Positions 54,287 to 64,000 of a DNA stretch of 64,000 nt are shown in pieces. The notes below the pieces were generated by a model that did not search any database, was not told where the DNA came from, and was given only the letters and a program-made list of their open reading frames with translations. Source of the DNA: Limnohabitans sp. (lineage in GTDB: Bacteria; Pseudomonadota; Gammaproteobacteria; Burkholderiales; Burkholderiaceae_C); the NCBI GenBank assembly GCA_046052765.1, contig JAVLFQ010000052.1; one strand, given 5' to 3'. The position numbers were made by a program, and so were the translations under genes. How positions within the stretch are numbered: the stretch's first letter is position 1; the number at the start of each line of letters is the position of its first letter.

Positions 54287-55213
54287 TTGCCCTCAAACCA
54301 AAACCCTCTCGGTGCACTGCCATCGCGCTTTAAAAGACCGCGCATATTGATCGTTGGTTGCGGTGATGTAGGTTTGCGTGCCGCCAATTTATTAAAGAGT
54401 TCAAGCCGTGTTTATGCGTTAACCAGCAACGCATCGCGTATATCAATTTTGCAGCAGCAAGGTATCACGGCTTTGCAAGGCAATCTGGATGAACCGGCCA
54501 GTTTGCGACGGTTGGCAGGTATAGCCACGCACATCATTCACATGGCGCCTCCTCCTTCACAAGGCATCACCGATCAACGCAGTAAAGCCTTGGTGCAAGC
54601 TATGATGCGGCGCTCTTCTCCCTACGCAGTGGTGTATGGCTCAACCAGTGGCGTGTATGGCGACTGCGGCGGCGCATGGATAGATGAAACACAACCATTG
54701 AAGCCGCAAACAGATCGCGCTTACAGACGTGTCGATGCTGAGGCTTGGTTGAACGCCTGGGGCTCGCGGGGTTTTCCGCGTATCAGCGTGTTGCGTATTC
54801 CCGGTATTTATGCGCTGGACCGAGAGGGCGGCACACCGCTCGAACGCTTACACCGTGGCACGCCGGTGCTGCAAGCCAGCGATGATGTGTATACCAACCA
54901 CATCCATGCCGACGATCTGGCGCGTGCGACCGTGCTGTGTGTGTGGCGCGGCAACACCTTGCGGCCTTTGCATGTGAGCGATGACAGCCATATGTTGATG
55001 GGCGATTACATGGACATGGCCGCAGACCTGTGGCAGTTGCCACGCCCACCGCGCATCAACAGGGCGCAAGCGCAAACCGCATTGCCTGCCATGACATTGA
55101 GTTTCATGAGCGAATCCAGACGTATGCACAACCAGCGTTTGAAAAACGAGTTGCGCATGAAGTTGTGCTATCCCACCGTGCGCGAAGGCTTGCAGGGCAA
55201 GCCGGTTTTTTAA
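54287..55213 (+). CDS. NAD-dependent epimerase/SDR (YeeZ-like)
   Basis: GCGDVG, YGSTSGVYGD, LRIPGIY, TNHIHADDLA; TTG start. Confidence 0.88.
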   Translation: MPSNQNPLGALPSRFKRPRILIVGCGDVGLRAANLLKSSSRVYALTSNASRISILQQQGITALQGNLDEPASLRRLAGIATHIIHMAPPPSQGITDQRSKALVQAMMRRSSPYAVVYGSTSGVYGDCGGAWIDETQPLKPQTDRAYRRVDAEAWLNAWGSRGFPRISVLRIPGIYALDREGGTPLERLHRGTPVLQASDDVYTNHIHADDLARATVLCVWRGNTLRPLHVSDDSHMLMGDYMDMAADLWQLPRPPRINRAQAQTALPAMTLSFMSESRRMHNQRLKNELRMKLCYPTVREGLQGKPVF

Positions 55214-56334
55214 CGCATGCCGATTTTGGCGTCGCCAAATATGCCGGTGACTTCGCGCGGCAGGCTGCGCCAATATTGCTGTGTGGCTTGCACCTGACCG
55301 CCAAGCGCGGCGGCAGCTTCCCAACCCCAACGCGGTTTGTATAAAAAGCTGCGACCTAAGGCAATCATGTCTGCGTCCCCAGCTTGCAAAACTTCCTCTG
55401 CGTGTCGTGGTTCGGTGATCAAACCGACAGCAATGGTGGGTAATCCAGTTTCTTGCTTAATGTGTTTGGCGAAATGCACTTGGTAGCCAGGGCCGATGGT
55501 GATTTTTTGCTGCGGAGAGATACCACCGGAAGACACGTGTACAAAGTCTGCACCGGCTTGCTTTAACTGTTTGGTGAAGTCTGTGGTTTGCTCCAAATCC
55601 CAGCCGCCTTCTATCCAATCGCTGGCAGATAAACGCATACCGAGTACGCCGTGAAACACTTTGCGAACGGCATTGAAAACTTGCAAAGGAAAGCGCGCGC
55701 GGTTGGCGAAATTGCCGCCGTAGTTGTCGTTGCGTTGGTTGGCGATGGGCGATAAAAATTCGTGCAACAAATAACCATGCGCACCGTGCAATTCCAGCAT
55801 CTCCAAGCCCATGGCTTGGGCGCGTTGCGCGGCTTTGACAAACGCTTGTTCAATCGCTAGCAAACCGGCGGCATCGATTTCATGCGGCGGCGCTTCGCCA
55901 GGCAACAGGTTGATGGGCGAGGGTGCCAAGGTTTCCCAACCGCCATGCGCTTTGTCTATCAGCATGCCGCCGTTCCAAGGTTGAGCGCTGGAGCCTTTGC
56001 GGCCAGCATGCGCAATTTGCAAGCAAACAGGCACGGGGGGCGCGAGTTTGCGCGCGCGCGCCAAGGTGTCGGCAAGCGCATCAGCGGTCGCATCGTCCCA
56101 GATACCCAAACAATTCGGTGTGATGCGGCCTTGTGCTGTGACTGCAGTGGCTTCGATCATGAACACACCAGCGCCGCTATTGAGCAAATTGGCCCAGTGC
56201 ATCAAATGCCAGTCGTTCGCCTTACCGTCCAAATGACAAGCGTATTGGCACATGGGTGCCACCACGATGCGGTTGGGTAATGTCAACGGGCCGCGTGGAG
56301 ATTGGAGTGTGATGGGGGTGAAGAGAAGGCTCAT
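55210..56334 (-). CDS. NADH:flavin oxidoreductase (Old Yellow Enzyme family)
   Basis: PMCQY, QIAHAGRK, HGAHGYLLHEF, NQRNDNYGG. Confidence 0.94.
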   Translation of the reverse strand: MSLLFTPITLQSPRGPLTLPNRIVVAPMCQYACHLDGKANDWHLMHWANLLNSGAGVFMIEATAVTAQGRITPNCLGIWDDATADALADTLARARKLAPPVPVCLQIAHAGRKGSSAQPWNGGMLIDKAHGGWETLAPSPINLLPGEAPPHEIDAAGLLAIEQAFVKAAQRAQAMGLEMLELHGAHGYLLHEFLSPIANQRNDNYGGNFANRARFPLQVFNAVRKVFHGVLGMRLSASDWIEGGWDLEQTTDFTKQLKQAGADFVHVSSGGISPQQKITIGPGYQVHFAKHIKQETGLPTIAVGLITEPRHAEEVLQAGDADMIALGRSFLYKPRWGWEAAAALGGQVQATQQYWRSLPREVTGIFGDAKIGMR

Positions 56335-56403
56335 AGTGCAATGTGAAGGGTAAATCAAATAACGCCATCTTAAAGCGAGCCAGAAGTGATCACAGACAGA
56401 CAT

Positions 56404-56429
56404 AAAAAAAACGACCCTTGTGGGGTCGT
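56404..56429 (-). terminator. Intrinsic terminator downstream of tRNA-Leu
   Basis: Minus strand ACGACCC-CACAA-GGGTCGT followed by a T tract. Confidence 0.8.
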
Positions 56430-56447
56430 ATTTTCATTGCCATCATC

Positions 56448-56535
56448 TGGTGCCGGAGGCCGGAATCGAACCGGCACGGTGTTTTGCACCGGCAGATTTT
56501 GAATCTGCTGCGTCTACCTATTTCGCCACTTCGGC
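56448..56535 (-). tRNA. tRNA-Leu (CAA)
   Basis: GCCGAAGTGGCGAAATAGGTAGACGCAGCAGATTCAAAATCTGCCGGTGCAAAACACCGTGCCGGTTCGATTCCGGCCTCCGGCACCA: anticodon CAA, long variable arm, TTCGA T-loop, encoded CCA. Confidence 0.96.
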
Positions 56536-56557
56536 TAAAGTGTTGAAGACCTGTATT

Positions 56558-57475
56558 ATGACATATTCAAGAACAAAATTCCCGACCTTGGCTGACGCGA
56601 TCGGTAACACGCCCTTGGTTCGGCTGCAAAGAGTTGAGCAAGCAACGCTTTTACGCCATTCCAATGTGGTTTTGGGTAAATTGGAAGGCAACAATCCGGC
56701 CGGATCGGTCAAAGACCGTCCCGCCCTTTCGATGATTGCAAGAGCCGAGGAGCGAGGAGACATCCAACCCGGCGAGACACTCATTGAGGCGACATCGGGT
56801 AACACGGGTATCGCCTTGGCCATGGCCGCGGCCATCAAAGGTTACCACTTGATTTTGATCATGCCTGAGGACTTGTCCATTGAACGCGCACAGACCATGA
56901 AGGCTTTTGGGGCTCAACTGATCTTGACGCCTAAAACAGGGGGCATGGAGCACGCCAGGGATTTGGCTTTGAGGATGCAGTCAGAGGGACGGGGAAGGGT
57001 TTTGGATCAATTTGGCAATCCTGACAACCCCAGGATCCATTATGAAACAACCGGGCCAGAGATCTGGAGAGACACGCATGGAGAGGTCACTCATTTTGTG
57101 AGCGCCATGGGCACGACGGGCACCATCACAGGCGTTTCAAGGTATTTAAAAGAACAAAATCCCCAAGTAAAAATCATTGGTGTACAACCTTCTGAGGGCT
57201 CGAGAATTCCTGGGATTCGAAAATGGTCCAAGGAGTATGTGCCCTCCATCTATGATCCAAGCCACGTGGACGAGTTGGTGTATGTGAGCCAAAGCGACGC
57301 TGAACAGATGTGTAGACGCCTGGCCAAGGAGGAGGGCTTGTTTGCCGGTGTGTCGGCCGCAGGTGCGTGCTGGGCTGCTCTGGAAATTGCAAAGAAAGTT
57401 CACCATGCCACGGTGGTTTTCATCGTCTGTGATCGAGGAGATCGCTACTTGTCTACGGGGGTCTTTCCCGCATGA
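56558..57475 (+). CDS. cysM: Cysteine synthase B
   Basis: IGNTPLV, NPAGSVKDR (PLP lysine), MGTTGT, IPGIRKW; start trimmed to 56558 so it does not overlap the tRNA. Confidence 0.95.
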   Translation: MTYSRTKFPTLADAIGNTPLVRLQRVEQATLLRHSNVVLGKLEGNNPAGSVKDRPALSMIARAEERGDIQPGETLIEATSGNTGIALAMAAAIKGYHLILIMPEDLSIERAQTMKAFGAQLILTPKTGGMEHARDLALRMQSEGRGRVLDQFGNPDNPRIHYETTGPEIWRDTHGEVTHFVSAMGTTGTITGVSRYLKEQNPQVKIIGVQPSEGSRIPGIRKWSKEYVPSIYDPSHVDELVYVSQSDAEQMCRRLAKEEGLFAGVSAAGACWAALEIAKKVHHATVVFIVCDRGDRYLSTGVFPA

Positions 57476-58008
57476 GTGATTACACCTACTGTCCCATGTG
57501 CAAAGAAGCCTTGTCCCTGATCGCTCGGCAAGAGGATGGACTGGCGGTCACGCGCCTCAGATGCAAAGCGTGTGAGTGGACCCATTGGAACAATCCAACG
57601 CCCGTGTTGGCGGCGATTGTGCAGTGGGAGGGGAAAATTTTGCTCGCAAGAAATGCCGCTTGGGCCCAAAGGCGCTTTGCTTTGATCACGGGCTTCATGG
57701 AAGCCCACGAGACGCCCGAGGGCGGTATCACCAGGGAGATCAAGGAGGAGACCCATCTAGAGGTGCAAGATTTGAGTTTGGTTGGGGTCTATGACTTTCA
57801 AAAGAAAAATCAAGTGCTGATCGTTTATCATGCGCACACACAAGGTGTGATTCAACTCAGTGAAGAGTTGCTGGAGTACAAACTCTACGAGCCTCATGAG
57901 ATCGTTTGTTGGCCCTCAGGCACGGGTTATGCTGTTGCGGATTGGCAAAGGAAAAGAGGCATAGAGCCCGTTTTTAAAGCCTGGGAAGATCGCAGCGAGA
58001 ACGAATGA
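57472..58008 (+). CDS. Zinc-ribbon NUDIX hydrolase
   Basis: YCPMC...CKAC ribbon; TGFMEAHETPEGGITREIKEET Nudix box. Confidence 0.9.
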   Translation: MSDYTYCPMCKEALSLIARQEDGLAVTRLRCKACEWTHWNNPTPVLAAIVQWEGKILLARNAAWAQRRFALITGFMEAHETPEGGITREIKEETHLEVQDLSLVGVYDFQKKNQVLIVYHAHTQGVIQLSEELLEYKLYEPHEIVCWPSGTGYAVADWQRKRGIEPVFKAWEDRSENE

Positions 58009-58048
58009 AACACATCTTCAATGAAATGACCAACCAAACATCATCATC

Positions 58049-58276
58049 ATGCACGTTCACCAAGAATTAGATACATCTGGGCTCAATTGCCCTTTGCCTA
58101 TTTTGAAAACCAAAAAAGCCCTCTCCAGCATGCAAAGTGGAGAGATTTTGAGGGTGCGCTCAACGGACCCAGGTGCGAGCAGAGATTTCCAGGCCTTTGC
58201 CAAGCAAACGGGGCATGTGCTTCTCGAGAATTCGGCGAGTGGTCAAGAGTTTGTCTTTGTCTTGCAAAGAAAATGA
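58049..58276 (+). CDS. tusA: TusA/SirA-family sulfur carrier
   Basis: LDTSGLNCPLP motif; TDPG. Confidence 0.9.
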   Translation: MHVHQELDTSGLNCPLPILKTKKALSSMQSGEILRVRSTDPGASRDFQAFAKQTGHVLLENSASGQEFVFVLQRK

Positions 58277-58292
58277 GCCTCAAGCCTGGACT

Positions 58293-59183
58293 TCAAACAG
58301 AAGTCTTGAACGCATTCAAATATGCTTTGAAGTCTTGAGCCACCTCGGGGTGTTTCAAGGCCAACTCCACGGTGGCTTGAAGAAAGCCTAACTTAGAGCC
58401 ACAGTCAAATCGCTTGCCTTGGTAGTTGTAAGCAATCACGCCCTCGTGCTTTAACAATTCAGAAATGCCATCGGTCAGTTGAATTTCTCCAAGCGCCCCT
58501 TTGCCTGCGGTTTTGATCCGGTCAAAGATATGCGGGCTCAAAATGTAGCGCCCAGCCACGGCCAGTCGTGAATCGGTTTGTTCGGCTCTGGGCTTCTCTA
58601 CGATGCGTTTGACTTGCGTTTTGCCTTCGCCAAGCGCGTCACCAGAGACGATGCCATAGCGGTGCACTTGTTCACTTGGAACCTCTTGCACAGCCAAAAT
58701 GGACTGCTGGGTTTCAAAAAAGACCTCTGCCATTTGGGTCAAGATGCCTTTGCCGTTCTCAAGCCCAATCATCAAGTCATCGGCCAATAAAACAGCAAAG
58801 GGCTCATGGCCCACCAGCTTTTCTGCGCAAAGCACAGCGTGTCCAAGACCCAACGCACGGGGTTGACGGATGTAAGAGCAAAGCATGTCAGAGGGTTGAA
58901 CGTCTCTGATCAAGGACAAGAGAGATGCTTTGCCGGCCATTTCAAGTTCATTTTCCAATTCGTAAGCCGTGTCAAAGTGATCTTCAATGGCACGCTTACT
59001 TCTTCCGGTGACAAAGATCATGTGCCGAATGCCCGCCTCATACGCTTCTTCGACCGCGTATTGAATGAGGGGCTTGTCAACAATGGGCAGCATTTCTTTG
59101 GGTTGTGCTTTGGTGGCAGGCAAGAATCGCGTTCCCAAGCCTGCAACGGGAAACACAGCTTTGGTTAAGGTGGAAGGGTTCAA
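58293..59183 (-). CDS. galU: UTP--glucose-1-phosphate uridylyltransferase
   Basis: AVFPVAGLGTRFLPATKAQPKEMLP, VEKP, GEIQLTD, DCGSKLG. Confidence 0.97.
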   Translation of the reverse strand: MNPSTLTKAVFPVAGLGTRFLPATKAQPKEMLPIVDKPLIQYAVEEAYEAGIRHMIFVTGRSKRAIEDHFDTAYELENELEMAGKASLLSLIRDVQPSDMLCSYIRQPRALGLGHAVLCAEKLVGHEPFAVLLADDLMIGLENGKGILTQMAEVFFETQQSILAVQEVPSEQVHRYGIVSGDALGEGKTQVKRIVEKPRAEQTDSRLAVAGRYILSPHIFDRIKTAGKGALGEIQLTDGISELLKHEGVIAYNYQGKRFDCGSKLGFLQATVELALKHPEVAQDFKAYLNAFKTSV

Positions 59184-59259
59184 AGTTTTTGCTCCAAAGT
59201 AATTGATTCATCAAAGCGACGCATCAAGGCTATTCATCAAGCCTATACATCAAGGCGAT

Positions 59260-62211
59260 TCATACAGCTGATATGCGCTTGAGTTGATCTTTGACCTTGG
59301 CCAAAGTCGATGTGAATTCCTCAATCCTCAGTTGCTCTTGCTCGATGACTTTGGCCGGTGCTTTGGCGACAAAAGCCTCGTTGCTGAGTTTGGCCTGCGC
59401 TTTGCTGAGTTCCGTCTCTAATCTCAAGACCTCTTTGCTAAGACGAGCGGTTTCAGCGGCCTGATCGATCTCGATGAACAAGCACACCCTGGACTGACCC
59501 AAAACGGCGACCGGGGCATTTTGAGCGGCGCTTTGCCACGCCCCTTCATCCTCAAAGGTTTTGATCTCTTGGAGTTTGGCCAAACTTTTGAGAACTGGCG
59601 CCATGTTTTGAATGAAACTGCTCTCCTCAGCGTTGCCCACCAAGATGTACAAAGGCACCTTGGTCGCGGGGGAGATGTTCATCTGACCTCTTAAGTTGCG
59701 GCAACCTTCGACCCAGTTCTTCAACTGGGCAATGGCGTGCTCGGCCAGAGGATCTATTTTGGCGGGTTGTGAGACAGGATAGTCGCAAACGCTCACAGAT
59801 GCTCGGTCTTGGTCTTTGGGCCAAAGTCCCGCAACAGGTGCGACCTTTTGCCACAATTCTTCCGTGATGAAGGGGATCAAGGGGTGACTCAAGCGAAGGA
59901 TGGCCTCAAGGGTGCGAATCAACGTGCGCCTTGTGGCACGTGCTTGCGCGGGGCTGCCTTGTTGAATTTGTACTTTAGCAATCTCCAAGTACCAATCACA
60001 GAACTCATTCCAGACAAATTCGTAGATGGCGTTGGCCACCAGATCGAGTCGATAGTCTTTGAAGCCTTGCGCAACTTGCGCTTCCACGCGTTGGAGCATG
60101 GAACTCATCCAACGGTCGGCTTGACTGAATTGCATGTAACCATGAAAGGGTCCACCAGGAGCGCATTGCTCTTTGGAGTGTTGTTCCAGACCACAGTCTT
60201 GCCCCTCGCAATTCATCAGGACAAAACGTGTGGCGTTCCATAGCTTGTTGCAAAAGTTGCGGTAGCCCTCGCAGCGCTTGGTATCGAAATTGATGCTTCT
60301 CCCAAGGGACGCCAAGGCTGCAAAGGTGAACCTCAACGCGTCAGCACCGTACGACGGGATGCCCAGTGGAAACTCTTTCTCTGTGTTTTTCTTGACCAAG
60401 GGTGCGGTCTCGGGACGGCGCAACCCCGTGGTCCTTTTGGCAAGCAAGGGTTCGAGTTCAATGCCATCAATCAAGTCGACGGGGTCAAGAACGTTGCCCT
60501 CAGACTTGGACATCTTCTTGCCTTGTGCATCGCGCACCAAGCCGTGGATGTACACATCTTTGAAGGGCACTTTACCTGTGAAGTGGGTGCTCATCATGAT
60601 CATCCGGGCCACCCAAAAGAAGATGATGTCATAGCCCGTGACCAACACGGAACTGGGCAAGTACAAGTGAAAGTCCTCGGTCTCTTTGGGCCAACCCAAT
60701 GTTGAAAAAGGCACCAAGGCGGAGGAGAACCAGGTGTCCAACACATCGGCGTCTTGGGTGAGTTGACGACCTGGGCCTGCTTCATCTTGAGCTTGAGTCA
60801 AACTTTCTGCCACATAGACGTGACCGTCTTCGTCGTACCACGCGGGAATTTGGTGCCCCCACCAAAGTTGTCGGCTGATGCACCAGTCTTGAATGTTCTT
60901 CATCCACTGGTTGTAAGTGTTGACCCAGTTTTCTGGCACAAAACGAACTTCACCCAATTCAACCGCTCGGATGGCCTTTTCTGCAATGGACAGTCCCTTG
61001 GGATCCAACTGGCTTTTTTCAGTCATGGCCACAAACCATTGATCGGTCAGCATCGGCTCAATGATTTGTCCGGTTCTCTCACATCTTGGGACCATGAGGG
61101 TGTGGGCTTTGACGTCGACCAAGAGACCCGCTTCTTTCAAATCTTGCACAATGTGCTCGCGTGCTTTAAAGCGGTCCAGTCCCTGATAGGCCTTGGGGGC
61201 TTGGTCATTGACACTGGCATCCAAATTGAAAATATTGATTTGCGGCAACTGGTGACGCACACCGACGGCAAAGTCATTGGCATCGTGTGCAGGGGTGACC
61301 TTGACCACGCCCGTCCCAAAGTCCTTGTCCACGTAGGCATCGGCAATCACGGGGATCAATCGCTCGCACAAAGGCAAATGCACCCGTTGACCGATCAAGT
61401 GTTGGTACCTGGCGTCTTCGGGGTTGACCATGACCGCCACGTCGCCCAGCATGGTCTCTGGGCGGGTGGTCGCCACCACCAAGCGTTCATTGGAGTTCTC
61501 GATGGGATAGGCGATGTGCCACATGAAGCCTTTTTCTTCTTGGCTTTCCACTTCCAAGTCGGAGACAGCTGTTTTAAGGATGGGGTCCCAGTGAACAAGG
61601 CGTTTGCCCCGGTAGATGAGGCCTTCCTTGTAGAGTTGGACAAAAGCCTTGGTCACGACCTCGCTTCTTGGCTCATCCATGGTGAAGTACTCGCGACTCC
61701 AGTCCACGCTGTCACCCATGCGGCGCATTTGTTGGGTGATGGTTTTGCCACTTTTCTCCTTCCATTCCCAAACTTTAGCGATGAAGTTTTTTCTGGAGAC
61801 CTGCTCTGTGGGGCCAAGGGTGTGCTTGGACAGGCCTTGCTCTTGGAGTTGCCGCTCAACCACAATTTGAGTGGCGATCCCCGCATGATCGGTGCCTGGG
61901 ATCCATGCGGTGTTGGCGCCAGACATGCGGTGATAGCGGGTCAAGCTGTCCATGATCGTTTGATTGAAGGCGTGCCCCATGTGCAAAGTACCCGTCACAT
62001 TGGGAGGTGGGAGTTGAATGCAAAACCCAGGCGCACCAGGCTTTGCTATGTGTGTACCTTTGAAGCCAGCCACACCGTAGCCACGGGCTTCCCATTCTGG
62101 GCCCCAGTGGGCTTCAATTTCAGCGGGTTCAAAGGATTTGGACAGGCTCTGTAAGGCGGGCTGGTTGATGGGCGCAACTGGTGCAGTCGATTCTTTGGAG
62201 GCAGAGTTCAT
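59260..62211 (-). CDS. valS: Valine--tRNA ligase
   Basis: [30 protein letters not shown]-terminal coiled-coil arm. Confidence 0.98.
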
Positions 62212-62234
62212 AAAGACCCATGAAGGCGGAAAAA

Positions 62235-62265
62235 GAAAAGTACAAAAAGTACAAAAACTACAAAA
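62235..62265. repeat. Short tandem repeat (about 3 x 9 bp) in the valS leader
   Basis: AAAAGTAC-AAAAAGTAC-AAAAACTAC-AAAA. Confidence 0.7.
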
Positions 62266-62398
62266 GGACCGTATGGGGGTTCTTTTTGTAAAAGATCATG
62301 TCATTTTAACCGTGCTTCATGCACTTCAAGAAGCGCTCAGAGAATGGGCCTTGGTGTGGGTCCAAGGCGCAGGTTCGCCAAAGGTTTTGCGCAGAACC

Positions 62399-63037
62399 TT
62401 ACTTTTTAGAAAATTCAGGCCTGTCGTTTCTCTCAGGTTTGAGCTTGCCTTGAACGCCTGAGCTTGCTTTCTCGGCTCGCCAAATTTCTTTTCTTTGGGT
62501 CCAAAGTTTCAGCCTCTCGTGGGCATCCAGGCTTTCTTTGTGCATGGTCTCTTTGCTGCCCGTTTGAACGGTCAATTCAAGACGGATGCCATTGGGGTCA
62601 AAGAAGTAAATGCTTTGAAAGACATGGTGATCGGTCACGCCCAACACCTCAATGCCATGGGCTTGCAGCCGCGCTTTGGCGCGCTCGAGTTCCTCGATGG
62701 TGTTGACCCTGAACGCAATGTGATTGACCCAAGCTGGCGTGTTCGGTGAGGGCAGCGCCGCTTGGTCGTCTCCCAAGTCAAAAAAGGCGATGAAGGAGCC
62801 GTCCAGCAGTCTGAAGAAAAAATGCGTGTAGGGGCAATACTCGCCAGTGCTCGGCACATGATCGCTTTGAATGATGTGGTACAAAGGCAAACCCAAAATG
62901 TCTTCATAAAAATGTCTCGTCTCTTCTGCATCCCTGGCGCGATAAGCGTACTGATGCAATTGCTGTATGTCAGCCGCCTTTGGTAAGGACTCCAAATGCG
63001 GGGTGCTCAGTGTGAAGGGGACCGTTTGAGAGGACAT
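62399..63037 (-). CDS. VOC/glyoxalase-family protein
   Basis: ETRHFYEDILGLPL, HIAF, SIYFFDPNGIRLEL; GGAG RBS before MSSQ. Confidence 0.88.
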   Translation of the reverse strand: MSSQTVPFTLSTPHLESLPKAADIQQLHQYAYRARDAEETRHFYEDILGLPLYHIIQSDHVPSTGEYCPYTHFFFRLLDGSFIAFFDLGDDQAALPSPNTPAWVNHIAFRVNTIEELERAKARLQAHGIEVLGVTDHHVFQSIYFFDPNGIRLELTVQTGSKETMHKESLDAHERLKLWTQRKEIWRAEKASSGVQGKLKPERNDRPEFSKK

Positions 63038-63274
63038 GGTGTCTCCGAATGTTAAATTCATGTCACGCAAGTGTAAGTCGGCTTGAGCTTTTAAGGGTGT
63101 AAAAAAACACAAGAAATGAGTATAAAACACTTACATAAAGCTTGGGCATCGTTTTCTTGTCTTGGATGGGTTAATCTATCGACTTGGATCAAGGAGAGAC
63201 TCTTTTCAGTGGGGGTCCTAAAAAAATAGAAATCGGTGCCCATGTCGCGCGTTCATTACAAGGAAAAATAGATC

Positions 63275-63697
63275 ATGTCCACACTCAAGGGCTCCAAGAC
63301 CGAAAACAATTTGAAAGAGGCTTTCTCGCAAGAGTCCCAAGCCAATCGGCGATATTTGTACTTTGCAAACAAAGCCGACATTGAAGGGCAGCAAGATGTT
63401 GCGGCCTTGTTTCGCTCTACCGCAGGAGGAGAGACGGGACATGCGCACGGCCACTTGGAGTGGCTCGAGCAGTGCTCAGACCCTGTGACAGGCTTGCCCT
63501 TTGGCTCCACGCGCGACAATTTGGCCGCTGCCGTGGCCGGAGAAACGCACGAGTACGCTGACATGTACCCTGGCATGGCCAAGACCGCTCGGCAAGAGGG
63601 TTTTGATGAAATTGCAGACTGGTTTGAAACTTTGGCCAAGGCAGAGCGCTCGCATGCGATGCGCTACACCAAGGCTTTGCTTGAGTTCAAAGATTGA
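63275..63697 (+). CDS. Rubrerythrin (short, no rubredoxin domain)
   Basis: ESQANRRY, ETGHAHGH, GETHEYADMYP, AERSH diiron motifs. Confidence 0.93.
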   Translation: MSTLKGSKTENNLKEAFSQESQANRRYLYFANKADIEGQQDVAALFRSTAGGETGHAHGHLEWLEQCSDPVTGLPFGSTRDNLAAAVAGETHEYADMYPGMAKTARQEGFDEIADWFETLAKAERSHAMRYTKALLEFKD

Positions 63698-63768
63698 GTT
63701 TAAAAACGGGTCTGCCTTGGTGCTGCATGGCGCTGGCGATGAAGCATGGTGATCAAAGGGCGTGCCAC

Positions 63769-64000
63769 ATGAAAAAACTGGGATACATTGGACTTGACAA
63801 TTTGATGACGCTAGAGGCTTATGCCAAGTACAGGCAGCAGCACCGTGCGGATCTCATGGCGCACAGGCAGCTCAGAAGCATCTCTTTGGGAGAGCACATG
63901 ACGGTTCAGTTTGAGAGTGAACTGACCCTTCGATATCAAATTCAAGAGATGCTCAGAATAGAAAAGATTGTTGATGAAATCGGTGTTCAAGCACAGATCG
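63769..64000 (+). CDS. DUF3501-family protein (5' part; runs off the right edge)
   Basis: Manual translation: MKKLGYIGLDNLMTLEAYAKYRQQHRADLMAHRQLRSISLGEHMTVQFESELTLRYQIQEMLRIEKI... Confidence 0.85.
   Translation, partial: MKKLGYIGLDNLMTLEAYAKYRQQHRADLMAHRQLRSISLGEHMTVQFESELTLRYQIQEMLRIEKIVDEIGVQAQI

Follow-up and report, generated by a model that had tools for sequence, protein, structure and literature searches.

Contigs and bins that combine DNA from several genomes are a problem addressed by GUNC (PMC8201837) and DeepMAsED (10.1101/763813). In metagenome chimeras of this kind, co-occurring related genomes share an identical stretch where the assembler switches from one genome to the other. 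The two sides of the join then differ in closest relatives, codon usage and tetranucleotide composition, and single-copy markers are duplicated in the bin. The same traits are found in the stretch of DNA analysed here, a window of 64,000 nt corresponding to positions 1136-65135 of contig C52 (65,449 nt), in which the shared stretch is the 62-nt core of a tRNA-Leu(CAA) gene and the duplicated marker is valS. C52 belongs to a 90-contig, 2.6-Mb metagenome-assembled genome (bin G000), and the relatives of its RarA protein place it among Limnohabitans-like Burkholderiales. It is very probably an inter-species chimeric contig, the codon-usage break located at the tRNA gene being the seam between the DNA of two species and thus an assembly artefact. 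Hereafter, X designates the bin's own organism, Y the species of assembly GCA_037134015.1 (G031), and V a third lineage. As a distinctive trait among such chimeras, C52 joins genomes that are syntenic at the junction, so that gene order looks normal, and the CheckM-style statistics of the bin stay good (100% complete, 2.29% contaminated). The tRNA of C52 is moreover a hybrid whose acceptor stem has lost a base pair, which is diagnostic of the join, and the reciprocal mis-join, contig C8, is present in the same bin.

Two biological systems have features in common with this locus. Genomic islands associated with tRNA genes, inserted by an integrase at the tRNA 3' end, likewise show an abrupt compositional break exactly at the tRNA. 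Unlike them, the C52 segment consists of core genes that are syntenic with the native locus and duplicate native genes found elsewhere in the bin. The replacement of core genes by inter-species recombination would also keep synteny, could involve a crossover in a conserved tRNA core and could leave a hybrid allele. Here, however, the native alleles remain in the bin, and the hybrid is absent from five assemblies of X and from the JGI metagenome contigs.

The tRNA-Leu(CAA) gene (56448-56535, minus strand) is the sole tRNA gene found by ARAGORN in the window. An abrupt change of codon usage at this gene, with little change in GC content, had been pointed out in the initial annotation, and pooled counts, codon ratio and tetranucleotide distance all agree with it. 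From the left 56 kb to the right 8.9 kb, the share of AGA and AGG (AGR) among Arg codons increases from 68/995 (6.8%) to 44/127 (34.6%; Fisher p = 1.4e-16 on pooled counts, as for the following values), that of GAG among Glu codons from 278/783 (35.5%) to 99/175 (56.6%; p = 3.7e-7), and that of GGA among Gly codons from 7.2% to 16.1% (p = 5e-4), whereas GC content is nearly flat over the break (~0.54 on the left vs 0.51-0.53 on the right). At the level of single genes, a recount on exact gene bounds gives the same values as the earlier hand counts for the flavin oxidoreductase gene OYE1, immediately left of the tRNA (0/18 AGR, 3/16 GAG), and for cysM, immediately right of it (11/21 AGR, 15/21 GAG). 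The NUDIX hydrolase gene that follows cysM has 6/10 AGR and 15/20 GAG, and the non-zero AGR background noted for rarA (about 5/35) becomes 5/34. Only the values attributed to a "qor" gene (0/11 AGR, 2/15 GAG) have to be corrected, as the open reading frame at 54287-55213 gives 4/31 and 3/8, leaving the overall picture unaffected. This reading frame has only weak Pfam Epimerase/TrkA_N hits in related assemblies and may not encode a quinone oxidoreductase.

A codon log-likelihood ratio was also calculated gene by gene, with a model Y derived from an unrelated contig of the donor species and a model X derived from the other large contigs of the bin. The ratio is below zero in 47/47 scored genes left of the tRNA and above zero in 6/6 scored genes right of it, all six lying at or above the 99th percentile of the bin. 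The difference in tetranucleotide distance (dX-dY) reaches +10.7 for the right segment, the 377 other 6-kb windows of the bin being all <= -1.8, and the sign of both scores flips exactly at the tRNA, as for two genomes. The codon-usage shift is real, and it is a step, not a gradient. Among 1743 seven-gene runs in the bin, AGR >= 0.28 and GAG >= 0.5 are jointly found only at the end of C52 and at one place of contig C88. The latter (C88:30225-38334, locus L027:6000-14365), with AGR of 0.28-0.30 and GAG of 0.53-0.54, is the only other multi-gene stretch of this type in the bin. An island, a phage or some other contaminant may account for it; its assignment to further Y DNA was rejected, as no DNA match to it is found in G031.

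The species to which the right side belongs is identified by sequence identity. The exact CysM protein of the window is encoded on contig JBAXNB010000061.1 of GCA_037134015.1, and this contig differs from C52 by 24 mismatches over 7867 nt (99.7% identity), from position 56448 to the last base of C52. The match begins at the 3' end of the tRNA; further left, JBAXNB010000061.1 carries an unrelated flank with an RHH_5 gene. G031 holds its own ftsK-lolA-rarA...OYE1 block on another contig, with 50-84% amino acid identity to the left genes of the window, and that contig displays an AGR of 0.34, a GAG of 0.60 and a GC content of 0.52, which is the signature of the window's right side. The "foreign" codon usage thus matches what a second species displays on an unrelated contig. 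On an independent JGI contig of 152 kb (L160), the left flank and the tRNA are both Y-type, and the right flank shares 99.67% identity with the right side of the window. Gene layout agrees, as the right side has the arrangement of Y and of the related genome G014, with galU between tusA and valS and without the genes for a flavin adenine dinucleotide (FAD)-binding protein and DsbA, and the position of galU is as in G014 and G031, unlike X, G010 and G015. With G010 and G015, the closest relatives, the right-hand genes share only 64-86% amino acid identity.

A difference in synonymous codon usage between species of one genus at nearly equal GC content is itself genuine. G031 displays AGR of 0.33-0.34 and GAG of 0.58-0.60, G014 is intermediate (AGR 0.19, GAG 0.48), and the other sampled loci range over AGR 0.04-0.11 and GAG 0.25-0.43.

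The left side belongs to X, whose own right-hand genes are located elsewhere in the bin. The left-hand genes of the window share mostly 83-97% amino acid identity with G010 and G015 (LolA 66-69%), including 93% between OYE1 and its G010 counterpart. The initial annotation had proposed looking for second copies of valS and galU in the assembly, and both are present. The 11.8-kb contig C8 carries a valS of 1010 amino acids (C8:5471-8503) together with second copies of cysM and of the NUDIX, glyoxalase and rubrerythrin genes and a tRNA-Leu(CAA) gene, in the same order, and contig C46 ends with a second galU. Codon usage in the C8 copies is X-like (AGR ~0.10, GAG ~0.30), and these copies share 79-100% amino acid identity with G010 and G015; the CysM proteins of the window and of C8 are 77% identical. 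In X, G010 and G015, the two extra genes (FAD-binding protein and DsbA) stand between valS and the glyoxalase gene, and galU is not found there. Exact-protein look-ups of the window RarA and of the C8 CysM gave no match.

On JGI contig Ga0136641_1000115, one of 61 JGI loci with a related tRNA (see below), the left flank of the tRNA is 99.35% identical to the left side of the window and the right flank is identical to C8. A look-up of the OYE1 protein of this contig (JGI locus L129) led to five assemblies of X from five different samples, on contigs of 24-120 kb (JGI Ga0136641_1000115 and ENA ERZ28594354, ERZ28594619, ERZ28594063 and ERZ28593643). Up to position 56447, all of them match the left side of the window at 99.0-99.3% identity; they carry an unmixed X-type tRNA and continue past it for 9.8 kb at 98.8-99.1% identity to C8:1-10382, vs only 67-75% identity to the window's right side. 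Judged by these alignments, C8 is in all likelihood the true right-hand continuation of X.

The right-hand genes could also be a region of the X chromosome under a distinct mutational or selective bias, or a genomic island targeted to the tRNA; in favour of this, the break falls at a tRNA gene, a classic boundary of islands. Nevertheless, the true right side of X, on C8 and in the five assemblies, has ordinary X codon usage, and the right segment matches, at 99.7% identity, a different species in which a sampled unrelated contig displays the same signature. The 12 called genes belong to ordinary metabolic and housekeeping families, with 0 integrases, the segment is placed 5' of the tRNA, and the tRNA sequence occurs in the bin only on C52 and C8, without a direct repeat of the tRNA end. 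The absence of an integrase and the position on the 5' side had been correctly pointed out in the initial annotation, and both fit an artefact. The island and mutational-domain readings have next to no probability left and are excluded.

The junction itself can be narrowed down within the tRNA, in which three diagnostic sites tell the alleles apart (Table 1). In the window, position 56456, in the 3' acceptor strand, is X-type (G), and positions 56519, in the D-loop, and 56531, in the 5' acceptor strand, are Y-type (T). As 56456 is of X-type and 56519 of Y-type, the switch lies in the interval 56457-56518, a stretch of 62 nt that is identical in the X and Y tRNA genes. The resulting hybrid has an A5·C68 mismatch in the acceptor stem, where X has G5-C68 and Y has A5-U68; the X, Y and V alleles all pair at 5:68. 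The hybrid allele gave 0 exact matches in the JGI metagenome contigs. A degenerate search for this tRNA in the same contigs yielded 61 related loci that carry only four other, unmixed alleles, 0/61 being mixed like that of the window. The terminator of the tRNA is X-type. Its hairpin, GACCCCACAAGGGTC, is the same in G010, G015 and the X assemblies, one position of the T-run being unlike G010 and G015; it is absent from Y, and a different one is found on C8 and in V.

Table 1. Flanks and tRNA-Leu(CAA) alleles in the source lineages and in both contigs of the bin
Source	Left flank	tRNA allele	Right flank
X (five assemblies)	X	GGAC	X
Y (G031, L160)	Y	AGTT	Y
V (L125)	V	GAAC	V
Window (C52)	X	GGTT (hybrid)	Y
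C8	V	GAAC	X

The left flank of C8 leads to the third lineage. Beyond the tRNA, C8:10383-11774 (locus L026) consists of a 1.3-kb flank with a GC content of 0.64 that includes the start of a gene for a FadH-like oxidoreductase. Because this flank is 98.3% identical to JGI contig Ga0214921_10036224 (L125), while the cysM side of L125 is only 80.5% identical to C8, C8 is a left part of V joined to a right part of X, and is itself mis-joined at tRNA-Leu(CAA). Another arrangement, in which C8 would be a tRNA island with a duplicated tRNA end, the left part of C52 and C8 being carried by one genome with two tRNA copies, was rejected. Indeed, G007 has a FadH-like gene between the tRNA and OYE1 without a tRNA repeat, OYE1 lies directly beside the tRNA in 5/5 X assemblies, and the FadH flank is that of lineage V, which has a different cysM. 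A mis-resolved repeat node would be expected to yield two such swapped joins at a single tRNA of one assembly.

Gene trees, another check proposed in the initial annotation, are incongruent between the left and the right of the tRNA, as for two genomes. The OYE1 and Fer2 reductase sequences of the window cluster with those of the X assemblies, G010 and G015. Its ValS and CysM cluster with those of G031, to which they are nearly identical, and of G014, the C8 sequences being placed among the X assemblies. All these groupings are supported at 98-100%, and at 100/100 for the ValS grouping of the window with G031.

The origin of C52 can be described from these elements. Its first ~57.6 kb (window 1-56456) would derive from X, a Limnohabitans-like member of the Burkholderiales, and its last ~8.9 kb (window ~56519 to the contig end) from Y. 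Both genomes are syntenic in this region, from OYE1 through tRNA-Leu(CAA) and cysM on to valS, and share the tRNA core, inside which the assembler probably crossed from the X path to the Y path. The right side of X would have gone to C8, where this tRNA links it to the V left flank, in a round-robin swap at one repeat node. The sequences on either side of the junction have different closest relatives and compositional signatures, with an abrupt change from one to the other at a stretch that is identical in both source genomes. In independent data, the X/X (five assemblies) and Y/Y (G031, L160) arrangements are found uninterrupted and the hybrid is not, and the displaced native sequence is found elsewhere in the assembly (C8:1-10382, and X galU on C46). 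Because C52 would join X to Y, the codon break would simply reflect how the genomes of two species ordinarily differ, seen here side by side.

Among the three inferences offered in the initial annotation, a chimeric contig joined at the conserved tRNA therefore stands, and neither a chromosome domain with its own bias nor a large homologous replacement does. For the latter, the X strain represented by G000 would have acquired by recent recombination at least 8.9 kb of Y core genes, from cysM to DUF3501 and including valS, through a crossover in the tRNA core, C8 then deriving from a co-occurring non-recombinant strain. The event would have to be recent enough to account for the 99.7% identity to the donor and for the uncompensated A5·C68 mismatch. 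Such a homologous exchange is mechanically possible, since the gene order of X and Y is conserved across the junction. An identical stretch of 62 nt could suffice for RecA-mediated exchange, and a hybrid tRNA is the expected trace of a crossover in its core. However, the recombinant junction is found in 0/5 X assemblies at 99% identity, these independent assemblies showing the unrecombined one, and the bin itself contains, on C8, the native right side, at that same level of 99% identity. With X galU on C46, the native alleles are thus not lost. Moreover, no return crossover precedes the end of C52, which is Y sequence to its last base, the hybrid tRNA combines an acceptor-stem mismatch with its lack of exact matches in JGI contigs, and the swap with a third lineage on C8 would require two independent recombinants at the same tRNA in one sample. 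Recombination is thus very unlikely. A Campbell-type integration of a Y circle was also rejected, as the predicted Y left flank beside an X-type 5' half of the tRNA is not found in the bin.

The X and Y contig ends might also have been joined in the tRNA after assembly, by scaffolding, contig merging, bin refinement or reference-guided extension. This would give the same result as a mis-join in the assembly graph, contig ends overlapping within the 62-88 nt of the tRNA would permit an overlap-based merge, and the Y contig in GCA_037134015.1 ends 517 nt from the tRNA. There is no N-run at the junction, and the present data do not separate such a join from a graph-level one; it is regarded as highly improbable.

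Several points weigh against the interpretation of C52 as a chimera. The case is built from assembled contigs. The 62-nt core would explain a mis-join only with k <= ~62, or with an iterative-k assembler that carries small-k contigs forward. The absence of the hybrid from the JGI contigs is weak negative evidence, X itself being rare there (one hit). Finally, a recombinant X strain could, in principle, coexist with a non-recombinant strain supplying C8.

The features on both sides of the junction are listed in Table 2.

Table 2. Features around the junction, in window coordinates
Feature	Position	Strand	Basis and remarks
OYE1, old-yellow-enzyme-type NADH:flavin oxidoreductase	55210..56334	-	Pfam Oxidored_FMN, E 9e-56; last gene of the X part
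Intrinsic terminator of the tRNA, X-type	56405..56440	-	Hairpin GACCCCACAAGGGTC and downstream T-run (minus strand), read from the sequence
tRNA-Leu(CAA), hybrid allele	56448..56535	-	ARAGORN; alignment to X, Y and V alleles
X-to-Y switch interval, 62 nt	56457..56518	.	Bounded by diagnostic sites 56456 (X-type) and 56519 (Y-type)
cysM, pyridoxal phosphate-dependent cysteine synthase, species Y	56558..57475	+	Pfam PALP; protein identical to that of GCA_037134015.1
NUDIX hydrolase, species Y	57472..58008	+	Pfam NUDIX; 65% identical to C8 copy
TusA-like small protein, species Y	58049..58276	+	Gene called, with Pfam TusA, in locus L022 (99.7% identical); mapped by offset
galU, UTP-glucose-1-phosphate uridylyltransferase, species Y	58293..59183	-	Pfam NTP_transferase; 67% identical to the bin's own galU (C46 end)
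valS, species Y, 983 amino acids	59260..62211	-	Pfam tRNA-synt_1, Anticodon_1, Val_tRNA-synt_C
Glyoxalase/dioxygenase-superfamily protein, species Y	62399..63010	-	Pfam Glyoxalase; 74% identical to C8 copy
Rubrerythrin, species Y	63275..63697	+	Pfam Rubrerythrin; 86% identical to C8 copy
DUF3501 protein, species Y	63769..64000	+	Pfam DUF3501; extends past the window, C52 ending inside the gene 314 nt further on

The 5' end of the tRNA is separated by only 22 nt (56536-56557) from the start codon of the divergent cysM gene, as in the Y locus L022, and X is similarly tight. Because of this short distance, the predicted promoter of the tRNA must overlap the 5' end of cysM. On the other side, the spacer between the tRNA 3' end and OYE1 (window 56335-56447; loci L014, L016-L020 and L029) varies within the genus. 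It measures ~0.1 kb in X and G015, and 1.4-2.4 kb in G001, G009, G010, G012 and G014. The G007 spacer, of 7.4 kb, contains a FadH-like gene, and that of G031 an RHH_5 gene. The 3' side of the tRNA looks like a variable spot.

ValS proteins also differ in length. They have ~1010-1040 amino acids in X, G001, G006, G008, G010, G011, G012 and G015, where the match to the query is broken into two pieces around residue 509. The split suggests a segment inserted near this residue relative to the 983-amino-acid ValS of Y and G014.

As biology, the break is unimportant, the "foreign" housekeeping genes belonging to another organism. Its significance lies in data quality, as a well-scored bin still includes at least two mis-joined contigs, C52 and C8, with a single tRNA as the point of joining, and the synteny of the source genomes means that gene order gives no warning of the mis-join. 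Joins of this type can be searched for by combining a hybrid tRNA with a broken compensatory pair, single-copy genes that are duplicated on a short contig, and codon and tetranucleotide scores that change sign exactly at a conserved gene. Any horizontal transfer, valS phylogeny or codon-usage evolution inferred from C52 would mislead.

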